A DNA stretch of 64,000 bases from Escherichia phage W70. The notes beneath the pieces were generated by a model. The model searched no databases. It saw only the letters and a program-made list of their open reading frames with translations, and had not been told where the DNA came from. A program made the translations under genes and the position numbers. The stretch lies in the sequence record OP778610. One strand, written 5' to 3'. Below, piece by piece: positions 2,931 through 63,174 of this stretch. Positions within the stretch are counted from its first letter, which is position 1, and the number at the start of each line of letters is the position of its first letter.

Positions 2931-2951
2931 ACATCAAAGAGAGAAATCAAA

Positions 2952-3170
2952 ATGGCTAATATCCGCACACTGTTAAAAAATGCAAAAGAAGTTTTATTTT
3001 CTGACGATGAATATTTTAATCGCAATATCAAAGGCGTTCGGAACATTAAGGATATAAAGGAATTATTTGGAATCAAAGGTAACGTATATCGTAAAGGATT
3101 GCACGGTAATAATTTTGAATATAAGTTGGCTGATAGTGATTATAATTTTACACTGACCATCATTAGTTGA
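2952..3170 (+). CDS. hypothetical protein (72 aa)
   Basis: ORF with GAGAGA RBS after cassette. Confidence 0.5.
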   Translation: MANIRTLLKNAKEVLFSDDEYFNRNIKGVRNIKDIKELFGIKGNVYRKGLHGNNFEYKLADSDYNFTLTIIS

Positions 3171-3189
3171 AAGTTTTAATCTAGCGCTA

Positions 3190-3218
3190 TTGACTTAAGC
3201 CGATAGTGCTGGCATAAT
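3190..3218 (+). promoter_or_regulatory. sigma70-like promoter (TTGACT-17-CATAAT)
   Basis: Hexamers; cassette paralogous to promoter at 3483. Confidence 0.45.
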
Positions 3219-3250
3219 AACTTTTATCAAGAACATCAAAGGAAAGTAAA

Positions 3251-3463
3251 ATGGCTATCATTACTAAAATCAAAGTAAACAAAACACTGGTTAAGCTGGA
3301 AGAAGTGAAAGCAGGTTATAAAGTATCTTGGTGTGGCATGTATCGGATGTTCACAGATATAGACGATGCAATCAATTACTACACTAACACGATTAAAAAC
3401 TTTGTTCGTGCTGATGTGATTATTGCAGTGGAAGCACATAAAGCATCGAAAGAAAGTAAGTAA
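3251..3463 (+). CDS. hypothetical protein (70 aa)
   Basis: ORF with AAGGAAA RBS. Confidence 0.5.
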   Translation: MAIITKIKVNKTLVKLEEVKAGYKVSWCGMYRMFTDIDDAINYYTNTIKNFVRADVIIAVEAHKASKESK

Positions 3464-6336: not shown

Positions 6337-6717
6337 ATGAAAATGGCTAAAAATACTAACGTTTGTGATTACGCTAACCTGGTTACTCTGAATGCAGATT
6401 CTAAAATTAAACTAAGCGAGGTTGAAGCTATTCATATTCTGGCCCGTCGTTGGTTCCAACAATCATACGGCAATACTTATTTCTCTTTAAGTGTAGACGT
6501 GGAGATCGCTGGTAAATTGGTTCAAGTGGTTAGCGTGCCGTTCCAATATGGTTATGGTGATCATTTCGATACCGTGGCACTAGAAGAATTTAGCAAGGTT
6601 ATCAACATGGAAGGCAAGGAGTTTTCACGCGGTAGCTATCTATCCCGTTTTTGCCGTGACAACAATATCCCTGTTTATTCGAACGCCGTTGATGTTAAAC
6701 GCAAAAAAGATATGTAA
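6337..6717 (+). CDS. hypothetical protein (126 aa)
   Basis: ORF with AAGAGA RBS after cassette. Confidence 0.5.
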   Translation: MKMAKNTNVCDYANLVTLNADSKIKLSEVEAIHILARRWFQQSYGNTYFSLSVDVEIAGKLVQVVSVPFQYGYGDHFDTVALEEFSKVINMEGKEFSRGSYLSRFCRDNNIPVYSNAVDVKRKKDM

Positions 6718-6723
6718 TTATTA

Positions 6724-6782
6724 TTGACAGTACAAAGAAAACGAGTAAACTGTATTACATAGAAAGCGGGAACACTTCCCGC
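6724..6782 (+). promoter_or_regulatory. promoter (TTGACA..TAAACT) plus stem-loop GCGGGAACACTTCCCGC
   Basis: Paralogue of cassette at 2874. Confidence 0.45.
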
Positions 6783-6804
6783 TTATATTCTAGGAGTAAG
6801 AGAA

Positions 6805-7158
6805 ATGATCGAACAAATCAAAACTACGACGGCTAATGTAACGGGAACGGTAGCACACTTTACTAGTGATGAATCGCGGGGCGTTCCCTATTGTGCTGTA
6901 CATGTAAACACTGAGGGTAACTACTGGTTTACGGTTTACGGATCATATTCATTTGGACGGCCAGGGCATCAAAAAATTCTGGATAAAGTACAACCAACGG
7001 GTAAAAATATTACCGCTGAGATGTTTAATAAATCACTTGCAAAGTTAAAAGCACTGAAAGATTTTGGCTTTAAAGATCTAGTTATCAAACGTGATGAAAA
7101 ATTCCGCTTCCGTAATGATCTGGCAAATCGCTACTATGAAATCTATGAAGCACTTTAA
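6805..7158 (+). CDS. hypothetical protein (117 aa)
   Basis: ORF with AGGAG RBS. Confidence 0.5.
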   Translation: MIEQIKTTTANVTGTVAHFTSDESRGVPYCAVHVNTEGNYWFTVYGSYSFGRPGHQKILDKVQPTGKNITAEMFNKSLAKLKALKDFGFKDLVIKRDEKFRFRNDLANRYYEIYEAL

Positions 7159-7164
7159 TAAAAA

Positions 7165-7186
7165 GGGCCGCAATAGCGGCCTTTTC
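7165..7186 (+). terminator. rho-independent terminator
   Basis: GGGCCGCAATAGCGGCC hairpin plus TTTTC. Confidence 0.55.
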
Positions 7187-7268
7187 TATTGACACCTGCT
7201 AACCATTCCTTTAATATGCATCTTGTAGGGCAAGCAATAACGCAAGCCCACAAATAGGACAAACTATT

Positions 7269-7466
7269 ATGACCATCGCTAATGAACTGATCGCCGTATT
7301 GAATGAAGCCAAATCTAATGAAATCGATGTACAGATCAAGGAATTACCCAATGGCCTGATAGGTTGCACTTGCACCTGTATCGGAAGTGACTACACAGAG
7401 GTAAGCTCTCTAGAATCTCTCATTCGTCACTTGAAATCAATAGTTGAAGATTGGAGAATCATCTAA
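7269..7466 (+). CDS. hypothetical protein (65 aa)
   Basis: ORF; last gene of plus-strand early block. Confidence 0.45.
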   Translation: MTIANELIAVLNEAKSNEIDVQIKELPNGLIGCTCTCIGSDYTEVSSLESLIRHLKSIVEDWRII

Positions 7467-7603
7467 TAAACCAGGGGCCGCAATAGTGGCCCTTGTCATG
7501 TCCATCGGTGCGACTCTCCCAACCCTATTAATCCCTTCCCCATTTGGATCATCATAACTTACCTCATCTAATCATTAATCTAATCCCCTTTGGAATCTCT
7601 CCC

Positions 7604-8011
7604 CCACAAATCTAAACTAATCTGATAGCTTACCATAACATAATCCACAAAGAAAGAACTATTTTGCCCACAAAGAAAGGCAGTTTTAAAGAGATACCAT
7701 TGCCAGAGTATGGAGGTGGCGCGACCGTAGGGAGCGACACTATAAAACGAGTATACCCCTCCTACCGCTATGCGGTCATCGGTGATAACCGATATCGTTA
7801 CACGCTATCTGTTCTCTTCGTTTCCTCGTTTTATAGTGTCTATATGTAGTAATCTTTTATTCTTTGTCAATACATTATCGAAGATAATATTGAATTATTT
7901 AATGCTTTGTTATTCATATAAAGTGAATAGCTAGTCAATAGGAAGGCCGTTAGTGTGACCACACAAAGAGGCTATGCACCACAAAGAGAGGCCGTACTTG
8001 CCCACAAAAGG
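7604..8011. repeat. array of six CCACAAAG(A/G)(A/G) direct repeats (DnaA-box-like)
   Basis: Copies near 7604, 7645, 7668, 7959, 7978, 8001; TAATCCACA at 7642. Confidence 0.6.
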
Positions 8012-8117
8012 AGCAAACAAGCAAGGCGGTACGCCAGTTTGCTAATGAGCGTAGCTCTTTTGCTAGACAAAACTCTCTTCTCTCTTCTTTCCCAAAATAA
8101 ATTTTTTCTTGCTTTTA

Positions 8118-8285
8118 TTGCCAGAGTATGGCGGGGCGCTCAGGCTATTGATGGCCCTGATGGAGTCGCTCCTGCACAGTTGGGATAGTTCATCGTTGGA
8201 TAGTCACAAGTTGGTATTATTCTTCCCACTAGTTGGAACAGGCCAGAACTGGCGGGGCTTGGAGTCGCTCCACTTGTTGGACGGA
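8118..8285. repeat. duplicated TTGCCAGAGTATGG segment plus five GTTGG-type repeats
   Basis: TTGCCAGAGTATGG at 7700 and 8118; GGAGTCGCTCC twice; GTTGG every 15-20 bp. Confidence 0.55.
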
Positions 8286-8631
8286 AGAAGGGCGCTTGCA
8301 GTGCGTATAAGTTGTATTATGTTAAATGCAGATCGAAATCGGTATTCTAAACCAGATTCAGAAGTCAATAGAAATCTTTAACTTTATTGTTGGGGCAGCA
8401 CAACATTTTTCTTGACAAGTCGAATCAAAGATGTATTGTGGATTGAAAATAAATGAAGATAATGCTTGACTTCTTGGATATTTTGAAAACATCGGACCCC
8501 CTCCCCCTCCCCCACGGTCGCCGTGCCTGGCAGCAGTATCGATACGCTAGGATATTTTAGCCCCTACTGGACAAGACACCCCCCCGTCAGTTATAATGGG
8601 GGTATACCTATAGAAAAGTAAGGAGGTTGTA

Positions 8632-61413: not shown

Positions 61414-61485
61414 GGCCCTGTAGCTGGACGGTTCAAGCAAGCGACTCATAATCGCCAGACGGTGGTTCGATTCCACCCAGGGCCA
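61414..61485 (+). tRNA. tRNA with anticodon CAT (Met or Ile2)
   Basis: Acceptor GGCCCTG/CAGGGCC, T-arm GGTGG-TTCGATT-CCACC, loop CTCATAA, CCA encoded. Confidence 0.8.
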
Positions 61486-61621
61486 CCATACAAAGTCGGG
61501 TAGCTCCCGATAAGTCGTCGGACTGATGTTCCCTGACTATGAGTTCTCTCAACGATAACGACGTAGATCACAGCAGAAACGGCGCACCCTATTATATTTC
61601 TTAATACATTTCAATAAGTTC

Positions 61622-61650
61622 TTGACATAATCCTATTATACTGCTAATAT
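61622..61650 (+). promoter_or_regulatory. sigma70-like promoter (TTGACA-17-TAATAT)
   Basis: Hexamers upstream of ORF 61678. Confidence 0.5.
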
Positions 61651-61677
61651 AGATATATCGACTGAATTGAGGTGTTT

Positions 61678-62052
61678 ATGGCTAAAGCTGAAATCGTTAC
61701 TCGAAAACGCGGTCGGCCTACTACAGAGGAAAGCATTGCAATCAATACTGAGAGAGCAATTCTTCATGCTCGTTCCGAGTTTGCAAGACTTACTCCTCAA
61801 GCAATTAAAACTCTGGAAGGTCTACTGACTTCCGGTACAGAGAAAGTTAAAGAAACTACTGCGAAGTATATTCTTGAGCAAGCTGAAAAGGCAAACAATC
61901 TGTACACAATGGAAGATAATGAAGAGGATCTGGCAGGAGGAACTACTTCTGCAAATTCAGAAACTCATCAAGGCCCTTCTGATGCATTTAAAGATGCTAT
62001 CCCATTAACTACTCAGATTCGTGAGTATAAAATGGCAGAAGGTGAAGATTAA
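61678..62052 (+). CDS. hypothetical protein with AT-hook-like KRGRP motif
   Basis: ATG after GAGGTG RBS; RKRGRPTT. Confidence 0.5.
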   Translation: MAKAEIVTRKRGRPTTEESIAINTERAILHARSEFARLTPQAIKTLEGLLTSGTEKVKETTAKYILEQAEKANNLYTMEDNEEDLAGGTTSANSETHQGPSDAFKDAIPLTTQIREYKMAEGED

Positions 62053-62075
62053 GGCTCGCAAGGGCCTTTATTAAG
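62052..62075 (+). terminator. terminator-like hairpin with GCAA tetraloop
   Basis: AGGCTC-GCAA-GGGCCT followed by T-rich tract. Confidence 0.45.
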
Positions 62076-62297
62076 AAGTTTTCTTTAAGGTAGTTCTTAC
62101 TTTAGCAGAGTAAATCTTCGGCAAGTGGCGGTAACCACTTTACCGATACCTCATAGTCAGTGCTGCAAACACTGGCTACCTTAAAGAGAATTTAACTCGT
62201 CGAATAAGGAAGATGCTGATCTCAAAGTGAGGTCACTTACCGCAAGGGGTGTGCATAGACTCCCGCTTCCGAATAGACTATGTGGCGAGATGTATTT

Positions 62298-62376
62298 GGG
62301 GACGTGGCAGAGCGGTCGAATGCGCCTGACTGTAAATCAGGTATCCCACACGGTGGTTCGAATCCATCCGGCCCCA
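62298..62376 (+). tRNA. tRNA-Tyr (anticodon GTA)
   Basis: AC arm CCTGA-CTGTAAA-TCAGG; T-arm GGTGG-TTCGAAT-CCATC; acceptor with one A-G mismatch; CCA encoded. Confidence 0.7.
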
Positions 62377-62382
62377 CCAAAT

Positions 62383-62455
62383 TTTCCGTTAGGCTTACAG
62401 GATAAGATTCCCACAACATATCGTTGTGATACTGGTTCGAATCCAGTACGGAAAC
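62383..62455 (+). ncRNA. tRNA-like element (noncanonical anticodon arm)
   Basis: Perfect acceptor TTTCCGT/ACGGAAA and T-arm ACTGG-TTCGAAT-CCAGT; internal hairpin CACAAC-ATATC-GTTGTG. Confidence 0.45.
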
Positions 62456-62582
62456 CAAATTAAGCCGTGATGTGATGTAATCACTGACCTCTTTGAAGGA
62501 TCATGGCATTTTATACAAAAACCTGAATAATTTAGGTTTTAATTCCTGGGGTTCGTAGCCCTATTACTAAGAGGACTTAACT

Positions 62583-62792
62583 ATGTTTACTATTAAAATT
62601 ATTGATATCGATGGAAATGAGACTGGTGTTTCAACAAGGCACTATAGATGGTACTCAAAAATGAATATTTTTGATCTGGAGGGTGGTGAATCTGTTTCTG
62701 TACCACCAAAAAGTCGTGCTTATGTAATGAATGACAAAGGAATAACCATCGGTAGATACACAAATACAGCGGATCAACGCGTTCTTAATTAA
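62583..62792 (+). CDS. hypothetical protein (69 aa) inside tRNA cluster
   Basis: ORF with AAGAGGA RBS. Confidence 0.5.
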   Translation: MFTIKIIDIDGNETGVSTRHYRWYSKMNIFDLEGGESVSVPPKSRAYVMNDKGITIGRYTNTADQRVLN

Positions 62793-62793
62793 A

Positions 62794-62865
<72 letters not shown>

Positions 62866-62966
62866 CCAAACCTCTATCCATCTGACGCGTTTATGGGGTT
62901 GACCTGATCACTCTTCTCCTAATCTCGTGTGAAGACACCATGATTGTTGGGATGGATAAACTTCTT

Positions 62967-63038
62967 TTGGGGATTAGCCAAGCGGTAAGGCATCGGATTT
63001 TGATTCCGACATTCACTGGTTCGATTCCAGTATCCCCA
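62967..63038 (+). tRNA. tRNA-Gln (anticodon TTG)
   Basis: Acceptor TGGGGAT/ATCCCCA (U1-A72); AC arm TCGGA-TTTTGAT-TCCGA; T-arm ACTGG-TTCGATT-CCAGT. Confidence 0.9.
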
Positions 63039-63046
63039 GCCAATTA

Positions 63047-63121
<75 letters not shown>

Positions 63122-63174
63122 CCAATTTACCCTCATATAATAACAATAATATAATCTCCTCTCCTTCGCCTCAG

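Follow-up and report, generated by a model that had tools for sequence, protein, structure and literature searches.

What role would a cluster of short, nearly identical words play in the non-coding DNA of a phage? The 64,000-nucleotide stretch of Escherichia phage W70 considered here (sequence record OP778610; hereafter the window) carries such a cluster at positions 7604-8011, which a preliminary description had taken for six direct copies of CCACAAAG(A/G)(A/G) resembling DnaA boxes, perhaps an iteron array for a replication origin, a host-factor-binding site, or a packaging or injection signal. Our analysis suggests that these CCACAAAG-type words are most likely sequence-specific protein-binding repeats within the control region at the termini, or concatemer junction, of a Vequintavirinae phage. 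They are site-specific and conserved among relatives, they have mirror partners beyond a probable terminal repeat, and they adjoin boundary sites whose motif is common to three genera. Among the roles originally offered, packaging or terminus processing appears favoured over an origin, because 57-454 bp separate the array from the left boundary of this repeat and because it has mirror partners.

Sequence matches to the region place the source among the E. coli myophages of the subfamily Vequintavirinae, as a Septuagintavirus-like phage. Five such myophages match the region, A73 at 98% identity and A7_1, A5-4, vB_EcoM-LTH01 (LTH01) and UPEC06 at 87-91%; A73, A7_1 and A5-4 belong to the genus Septuagintavirus, and the window together with these five makes up the six phages compared below. 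The 143-kb genome of UPEC06 was assembled in full for genome-wide motif counts.

The repeat family and its conservation

Six clustered words are indeed present, although the consensus first given for them fits three copies only, since exact CCACAAAG occurs just three times in 7604-8011 (at 7645, 7668 and 7979). The copies at 7604, 7959 and 8002 read CCACAAATCT, CCACACAAAGAGG and CCACAAAAGG, respectively, and all six are accommodated by a looser family, CCACAAA/CACAAAG, with its members lying within 405 bp of non-coding DNA, all on the plus strand. Counted over the whole window, exact CCACAAAG is unremarkable by number alone (six copies versus 2.6 expected, with 5 of 100 shuffles reaching six). 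Within 7493-8065 (573 bp), CCACAAA occurs five times, a number reached by none of 2000 dinucleotide-preserving shuffles of that stretch (mean 0.05); five copies of any 7-mer appeared in only one of the 2000. The strongest 8-mer cluster of the window is CACAAAGA, with four copies in 405 bp, in a tie with TTTCTTCA. A word equally frequent elsewhere in the genome would have spoken against a dedicated array, and the UPEC06 genome shows the motif to be site-specific: CACAAAGARR has four top-strand copies there, every one of them at the homologous site, and just two others, both on the opposite strand.

Three subtypes can be distinguished. T1, CACAAAGARR, starts at 7646, 7669, 7962 and 7980; T2, TTGCCCACAAAR, occupies 7664-7675 and 7998-8009 and corresponds to the 12-bp motif TTGYCCACARAR; and T3, CCCACAAAT, occupies 7603-7611. 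T1 and T2 together compose a 30-nt module (family D1, 77% identity) that occurs twice, 334 bp apart, and neighboring copies are spaced by 18-23 bp in the window and by 20 bp in LTH01 and UPEC06. In the distal module, the T1 repeat CACAAAGAAA (7646-7655, plus strand) is followed 23 bp later by the T2 repeat TTGCCCACAAAG with a T1-like tail, again CACAAAGAAA (7664-7678 in all, the tail at 7669-7678, plus strand), and this second element lies in a nearly invariant block. The proximal module begins with a pair of plus-strand T1 repeats 18 bp apart, CACAAAGAGG at 7962 and CACAAAGAGA at 7980 (7962-7989), of which the relatives have one to three copies at a spacing of 18-20 bp, and ends with the plus-strand T2 repeat TTGCCCACAAAA (7998-8009), found in all six phages and in four of them as TTGCCCACAGAA. 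The T3 repeat, which was the first of the copies originally noticed, lies on the plus strand and is variable, reading CCCAAAAAT in A7_1 and LTH01.

Comparison of the six phages reveals two strongly constrained blocks, one at 7620-7860 (240 bp), which includes the distal module, and the other being the terminal repeat. The first is near-invariant though the phages are otherwise 87-98% identical. Between the two blocks, 7860-8060 is the most variable stretch, and yet the T1 word is kept there while the surrounding sequence has been replaced. The first constrained block also contains TTGCCAGAGTATGG (7700-7713, plus strand), the first of two exact copies, which is invariant in the six phages and similar to the left boundary site TTGCTAGAC; the window holds two exact matches and one with two mismatches, three in total, against 0.34 expected by chance. 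A promoter element was considered and rejected for both TTGCCAGAGTATGG and the repeats, as they do not fit sigma-70 spacing and are not dispersed across the genome.

Downstream of these elements in the same block lies a potential large hairpin or cruciform (7736-7840) with perfect 16-bp arms, GACACTATAAAACGAG and CTCGTTTTATAGTGTC, and a branched loop of 73 nt, for which folding gave z = -3.6 as DNA and -3.0 as RNA. It is preceded by a conserved stretch, GGAGGTGGCGCGACCGTAGGGAGC (GGCGCG.CCGTAG..GCGAC). Both the hairpin and the preceding stretch occur at the same position in CR3 (L013:1810-1913), in KPP-1 (L074:2840-3043, record reversed) and in the metagenomic contigs L078 (L078:3902-4075) and L080, where the arms are perfectly complementary but differ in sequence. 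Arms that have diverged and yet remain perfectly complementary argue for selection on structure, be it of DNA or of RNA. The hairpin is followed by a fast-evolving spacer (7841-7957) with 73.5% A+T, rising to 79% over 7841-7935.

The array lies in non-coding DNA, as had been proposed. No open reading frame (ORF) in 7470-8540 shows a codon-position (third-position) substitution bias among the six phages, and the ORFs annotated in the gap are inconsistent between the relatives' records. On these grounds, namely the lack of codon periodicity and the inconsistent annotation, we rejected candidate small proteins at 7664-7849, 7770-7934, 7955-8188 and 8109-8381 as well as three minus-strand ORFs.

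The DnaA-box identity of the repeats did not hold up. The word TAATCCACA, created by a TAATC that precedes the T1 repeat at 7646, is present at 7641-7649, as noted originally, and has one mismatch to the box, but it is not conserved: in A7_1, LTH01 and UPEC06, three of the five relatives, it reads TAACACACA or AAACACACA, the bases 5' of the T1 copy being variable and CACAAAGAAAG within it being identical in all six phages. No exact match to TTWTNCACA exists in the region of the array, and 7493-8065 has three matches with one mismatch; across the window, matches with at most one mismatch are not enriched (173 found versus 183 expected from shuffles). What is conserved is a repeat core, CACAAAGARAG, rather than the TTAT half of a DnaA box, and T2 departs from the consensus at box positions 3 (G) and 4 (C or T). 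Because of this absence of enrichment, the lack of conservation of TAATCCACA and the departure of T2 from the consensus, the likeness to DnaA boxes appears to be restricted to the CCACA core, and we rejected the DnaA box as the identity of the repeats. The broader notion of an array of specific binding repeats survives without it, given a site-specific motif, the spacing of 18-23 bp and the presence of two copies in a near-invariant block.

The probable terminal repeat, its boundaries and the mirror copies

The array sits within the 600 bp that separate the last rightward gene from a segment that is repeated in UPEC06. The UPEC06 record begins and ends with the same exact 462 bp, which correspond to window 8066-8527 at 98.5% identity, and from this homology 8066-8527 is probably a 462-bp direct terminal repeat in this phage, which would then have the same ends as UPEC06. 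The proximal T2 lies 57 bp, and the proximal T1 copies 76 and 94 bp, from the left cut; the distal T2 and T3 lie ~380-454 bp from it.

On the plus strand, the left boundary site reads TTGCTA^GAC (8060-8068), with the predicted cut at 8065/8066, the UPEC06 record starting at the base homologous to 8066. The right boundary site reads GTGCC^TGGCA (8523-8532), with the predicted cut at 8527/8528; its bottom strand is TGCCA^GGC. The right boundary lies in the only stretch of the gap that is also conserved in Certrevirus (CR3, CR8, PBES 02, CR9 and phiTE). Terminal repeats published for other genera measure 459 bp in Gotham (by record annotation), 475 bp in Jab and 514 bp in KPP-1, where coverage and PhageTerm gave the size and indicated T7-type packaging. 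Read inward, the boundaries are TGCCA^GGC and TGTCA^GAC in Gotham (L010:2560-2575 and L007:450-468) and TGCTA^GAC and TGCTA^AAC in KPP-1 (L074:2010-2022 and 2524-2538), so that the TGCTA^GAC of our left boundary is found again at a PhageTerm-defined boundary. All six boundaries, from UPEC06 and the window, Gotham and KPP-1 and thus from three genera, fit TGYYA^RRC with an identical cut position, a consensus derived post hoc from these same six. Each phage therefore carries a single cut-site motif at both of its boundaries, in opposite orientations. We know of no prior report of this motif. In CR3, TGCCTGGCA stands at both homologous boundary positions, 444 bp apart. An assembly artefact seems an unlikely source of the UPEC06 repeat, because repeats of similar size have been published, the boundary motif is shared, and the right boundary is conserved in Certrevirus.

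The terminal repeat is non-coding and without genes, and it contains no T1 or T2 copies. It does hold the second TTGCCAGAGTATGG (8118), two copies of GGAGTCGCTCC (8162 and 8261), five xGTTGG words within 8178-8280 (AGTTGG three times, CGTTGG and TGTTGG), a promoter-like site (8412-8439) and, just within the right boundary, the C-tract CCCCCTCCCCCTCCCCC (8494-8513), the Certrevirus form of which is CCCCTCCCC.CCCCC. At the equivalent place CR3 carries ~7 copies of ATTCTCAT instead, which points to a second, genus-specific repeat family within the terminal repeat. A 27-nt element, GTGCGTATAAGTTGTATTATGTTAAAT (8301-8327), is near-identical in CR3, Gotham and KPP-1 (the Gotham and KPP-1 records being reversed) and so appears to be subfamily-wide. 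The A73 record has an additional 104 bp (49 unrelated plus a 55-bp duplication; L001 ~6730-6835) between window positions 8133 and 8134; it coincides with the wrap of the gene numbering (A73_1/A73_264) and is probably an assembly artefact at former contig ends near the physical terminus.

Beyond the terminal repeat, the family recurs in the opposite orientation. In the window and its five relatives, the plus strand has CCACA-type words and no TGTGG to the left of the repeat, and TGTGG-type words and almost no CCACA to its right. Two minus-strand mirror T2 repeats occupy 9254-9286, an exact one, TTGTCCACAGAG (9254-9265), and one with a single mismatch, TTGTCTACAGAG (9275-9286); a mirror copy of T3, CCCACAAAT, lies on the bottom strand at 9507-9515; and a degenerate minus-strand array (9334-9604), which takes in this T3 copy, contributes five further TGTGG words, at 9334, 9378, 9406, 9510 and 9600 of the plus strand. 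TGTGG occurs six times in 9152-9650, a count that 4 of 2000 local shuffles reach, and this cluster is the maximum for the word in the window and in the whole UPEC06 genome (six per 600 bp, the next best being three). Exact TTGYCCACARAR is found three times in UPEC06, counting both strands, against ~0.14 expected. Two of these copies precede the right-hand repeat on the top strand, and the third follows the left-hand repeat on the bottom strand. The same pattern of three holds in the window, which adds a one-mismatch copy next to the mirror one. In those relatives that carry mirror copies, T2 lies 312-407 bp and T3 462-638 bp right of the right cut, roughly symmetric to the distances on the left; the number of mirror T2 copies per relative ranges from none (LTH01) to three.

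The recurrence of T2 and T3 on the opposite strand beyond the repeat makes the concatemer junction roughly dyad-symmetric. Laid out along a concatemer, the elements run as follows: the last rightward gene with its terminator; T3, T1 and T2; TTGCCAGAGTATGG; the hairpin; the AT-rich spacer; T1, T1 and T2; 57 bp; TTGCTA^GAC; the 462-bp repeat; GTGCC^TGGCA; inverted T2 and T3; and the terminator of the leftward genes. The array is thus one part of a complex non-coding control region around the terminal repeat.

Among all 6-mers in the flanks of four genera, inward TTTGTG, the complement of CACAAA, had the top total count and ranked second by the number of flanks containing it. A generic search for inverted 11-mers between flanks returned chance-level counts and exposed symmetric distances in A73. 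A metagenome scan with the hairpin-flank element found three distant relatives, for a qualitative comparison only. In two distant metagenomic relatives, CCACAAA words stand to the left and TGTGG words form dense arrays to the right. When IMG/VR was scanned with TCGCCRTGCCTGGCAGC and ATTGCCAGAGTATGG, the hits were confined to Certrevirus-type contigs and chance matches, with no additional Septuagintavirus junctions. In Gotham (L010/L007), two exact inverted 11-mers occur between the repeat flanks versus ~0.24 expected, each pair nearly symmetric with respect to the cuts (TACCTGTAACA at 361/395 bp and TTTCCTACCAC at 918/981 bp), and six GTTTACA(C) words adjoin one boundary. A dyad-symmetric junction could thus be a general feature, with each genus using words of its own.

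Possible functions of the repeats

The explanation we favor, tentatively and at a little under an even chance, is that the repeats serve as binding sites for the machinery that recognizes and cuts the concatemer junction, as suggested by sites near the cut, phased spacing, a single genome location and the symmetric arrangement. The phased direct repeats on the left and the inverted ones on the right would be bound by a phage protein, for which the small terminase subunit or some accessory factor is the most plausible candidate, and a roughly two-fold symmetric complex would form. This complex could place a nuclease at the two boundary sites, the inverted copies of TGYYA^RRC, and cutting there would give unit genomes with the repeat at both ends.

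Several points weigh against such a role. To our knowledge, the function of the comparable T7 arrays is itself unproven. The symmetry is imperfect: T1 repeats are found on the left side only, the proximal module 57-94 bp from the cut has no mirror partner, and the right-side distances are variable, being displaced outward in the window by an inserted HNH gene cassette. Moreover, both gene arms are transcribed outward, so that mirror orientation with respect to the ends is confounded with mirror orientation with respect to transcription. The ends assigned to this phage are those of UPEC06, whose record is labelled 'partial genome'. Finally, phiTE and PVP-SE1, of the same subfamily, were reported from restriction and Bal31 analysis to be circularly permuted, and packaging may thus vary within the subfamily.

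A more specific and bolder model, which we consider unlikely but not far-fetched, would make the junction a dyad-symmetric 'resolution site' in at least three genera. Here one protein on the inverted TTGYCCACARAR and CCCACAAAT arrays would synapse the two boundary sites, symmetric nicks would be made in opposite strands, and the repeat would be duplicated by strand-displacement synthesis. If true, the mechanism would be nearer to a recombinase or transposase synaptic complex than to the one-sided recognition of cos or pac sites.

A replication origin, with the two CCACAAAG modules as iterons for host DnaA or a phage initiator flanking a hairpin and an AT-rich unwinding element near the genome end, seems to us improbable, even though the layout invites it. 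The modules, 334 bp apart, bracket the hairpin and a stretch of 74-79% A+T, the spacing of 18-23 bp is iteron-like, the CCACA core looks like the 3' half of a DnaA box, and the bottom strand carries a cluster of four one-mismatch boxes at 9257-9414. T7 has secondary origins near its genome ends, which likewise counts for an origin. According to the rV5 paper, this group of phages has a T7-like replisome. However, the lack of TTWTNCACA matches at the site and of enrichment in the window, the bases of T2 at box positions 3 and 4, and the poor conservation of TAATCCACA all argue against it, and conservation across the region is lowest in the AT-rich spacer. The array has no initiator-like gene beside it, the neighbors matching only PHROGs of unknown function, and GC skew at the region merely tracks the direction of transcription, as the rV5 paper also found. 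An origin would also leave unexplained the mirror copies, which lie at least 1.2 kb away across the repeat and at the opposite end of the linear genome.

We regard it as no more probable that the words are transcription-polar signals, that is, that the C-rich, G-poor CCACAAA tracts act as Rho-loading (rut) zones or as sites for an RNA- or DNA-binding regulator that blocks read-through into the repeat and junction. The C/G ratio is 2.8 over 7493-7700, right after the last terminator hairpin, and 1.8 on the transcribed bottom strand of 9152-9650; the mirror orientation matches the orientation of transcription on both arms; and T7, which is transcribed one way only, has all of its arrays pointing one way. 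On the other hand, dinucleotide-preserving local shuffles never yield the repeats, and composition alone is therefore inadequate; rut sites require little sequence conservation, yet the distal module is invariant. In addition, hairpins with T-runs already terminate both gene arms ahead of the arrays, and the proximal module (7962-8009) lies past the hairpin and the AT-rich spacer, outside the C-rich tract.

Less probable still is a role in the infecting linear genome, in which, at either end, inward-facing sites ~400 bp inside the repeat would be bound by a protein whose task is to protect the ends, to pause DNA entry or to pair the ends so that the repeats can recombine. The layout is symmetric about the two physical ends, and the injection signal proposed in the preliminary description would suit a region near an end that is rich in repeats and inverted repeats. 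Yet, as far as can be judged from Chi polarity, the orientation is opposite to that needed for a Chi-like action on RecBCD entering at the end, and we rejected Chi-like protection from RecBCD on this basis; the two-step transfer of T5 uses a ~10-kb repeat with pre-early genes, whereas the repeat here is of 462 bp and gene-free; and T1 copies are present at one end only.

Least probable of all, and very unlikely in our view, is that the words have no function and are remnants of local duplication in a fast-evolving, recombination-prone terminal region: family D1 is a duplicated 30-nt unit, a bigger unit (T1, T2, TTGCCAGAGTATGG and a GC-rich stretch) occurs twice and copy number differs among relatives, but the distal module is invariant in six phages, the motif is kept while neighboring sequence turns over, and mirror copies lie across the repeat even in distant relatives with unalignable flanks.

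Neighboring features and known systems

The array lies in a gene-free gap of ~1.1 kb (7470-8630). Small rightward genes precede the gap, ending with the one at 7269-7466, after which a hairpin occupies 7475-7492; the leftward genes on the other side start at ~9693. Both gene arms are thus transcribed outward, toward the terminal repeat. The small ORFs upstream of the gap are genuine genes, as shown by their matches to PHROG families; six of the eight ORFs that flank it match solely PHROGs of unknown function, and the other two match none. Covariance models from Rfam gave no matches at E <= 1 in 6500-10000. We also considered, as an explanation of the non-coding region, the pseudo-ToxI locus of phiTE, and set it aside, as the paper describing it draws no link to this site.

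The only annotated neighbor is an HNH endonuclease. Its plus-strand ORF (8632-9120; 162 amino acids; HNH_3 domain, E = 5.5e-13; PHROG 'HNH endonuclease'), with a strong promoter-like site at 8568-8597, stands immediately past the terminal repeat's right boundary, with a 10-bp direct repeat, TGGCAGCAGT, bracketing it (8528-8537 and 9109-9118). None of the five close relatives has this gene, ~700 bp in the window replacing ~283 bp of A73; in phiTE an HNH gene, phiTE_097, occupies the corresponding position, and the upstream DNA aligns. The ORF has the look of a homing endonuclease gene whose target would be the conserved cut-site region. Elsewhere in the window, ATCAAAG forms another local word cluster (five copies in 405 bp at 2933-3340, among small early-type genes), and five tRNAs (Met, Tyr, Gly, Gln and Pro) are clustered at 61414-63124, the identical set having been reported for the related phage Jab.

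How concatemers are recognized and cut in phages with short direct repeats is poorly understood, even for T7. The Vequintavirinae are a large rV5-like group of enterobacterial phages that are candidates for therapy, and for this subfamily our literature searches turned up no account of an origin or a packaging signal, only repeat lengths and a box marked 'non-coding' in the rV5 paper; termini, repeats and origin are left undescribed in the Septuagintavirus and rV5 papers alike. Our analysis yields a conserved hairpin, a set of candidate repeats for recognition and exactly placed candidate cut sites (TGYYA^RRC), each open to mutation or cloning, and it takes a misleading 'DnaA box / origin' label off the region. 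These elements could be of use for mapping packaging signals, for designing transducing or phagemid vectors, and for orienting and annotating genomes of the subfamily correctly. Short repeats flanking a terminal repeat or terminase cut site are a known kind of element, and what would be new is their occurrence in another phage subfamily and their inverted arrangement.

Among known systems, the rut sites of Rho share with this locus a C-rich, G-poor tract downstream of a gene on the transcribed strand, a likeness that accounts for the composition and not for the exact repeats. DnaA and iteron origins (oriC, the lambda origin and plasmid iterons) likewise have direct repeats about two helical turns apart, an AT-rich neighbor and a CCACA core, but here the consensus is not matched, the box positions are not conserved, no initiator gene is adjacent, and mirror copies lie across the repeat. 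The injection stop signal region of T5 is non-coding, near an end, and rich in direct and inverted repeats and in DnaA-box-like words; it lies inside the ~10-kb repeat with its pre-early genes, whereas our arrays lie outside the gene-free repeat. In Twort-like and SPO1-like phages, an inverted short motif reportedly stands at both boundaries of the long terminal repeats, as attributed to Lobocka et al. in 2012; this parallels the TGYYA^RRC boundary sites rather than the CCACAAAG arrays, and those repeats are of several kb. Phased short sites near the cut, bound by the small terminase subunit, are well known from cosB of lambda (R1-R3) and from pacL and pacR of SPP1, where they lie on both sides. 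Several phased sites are also found here within a few hundred bp of a candidate cut, although those phages are cohesive-ended or headful packagers, and this one would have short direct repeats with two implied cuts 462 bp apart.

The closest analogue that we checked is T7, whose SRL and SRR arrays of the heptamer CCTAAAG flank a 160-bp terminal repeat. In the T7 genome (NC_001604), eight CCTAAAG copies lie at 175-338, just past the left repeat; the 160 bp before the right repeat contain further words of this type, two of them exact, and every copy is on one strand. Published work on T7 indicates that the packaging of plasmids requires the concatemer junction, and a feature of T7's own is that processing is coupled to the pausing of its RNA polymerase at the junction. 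There is no sequence homology between its arrays and ours; the T7 arrays are direct, with some copies inside the repeat, whereas ours are inverted, in all six phages, and none of the T1 and T2 copies in the window lies inside it. Nevertheless, in both cases short words of 7-10 bp, similar in form (C-rich, then AAAG), occur in many copies in non-coding DNA that adjoins a short direct terminal repeat, a probable one in the case of W70, on both sides of the junction, and the T7-type arrangement of short-word arrays outside both repeat boundaries is present here at 7603-8009 on the left and at 9254-9604 on the right.

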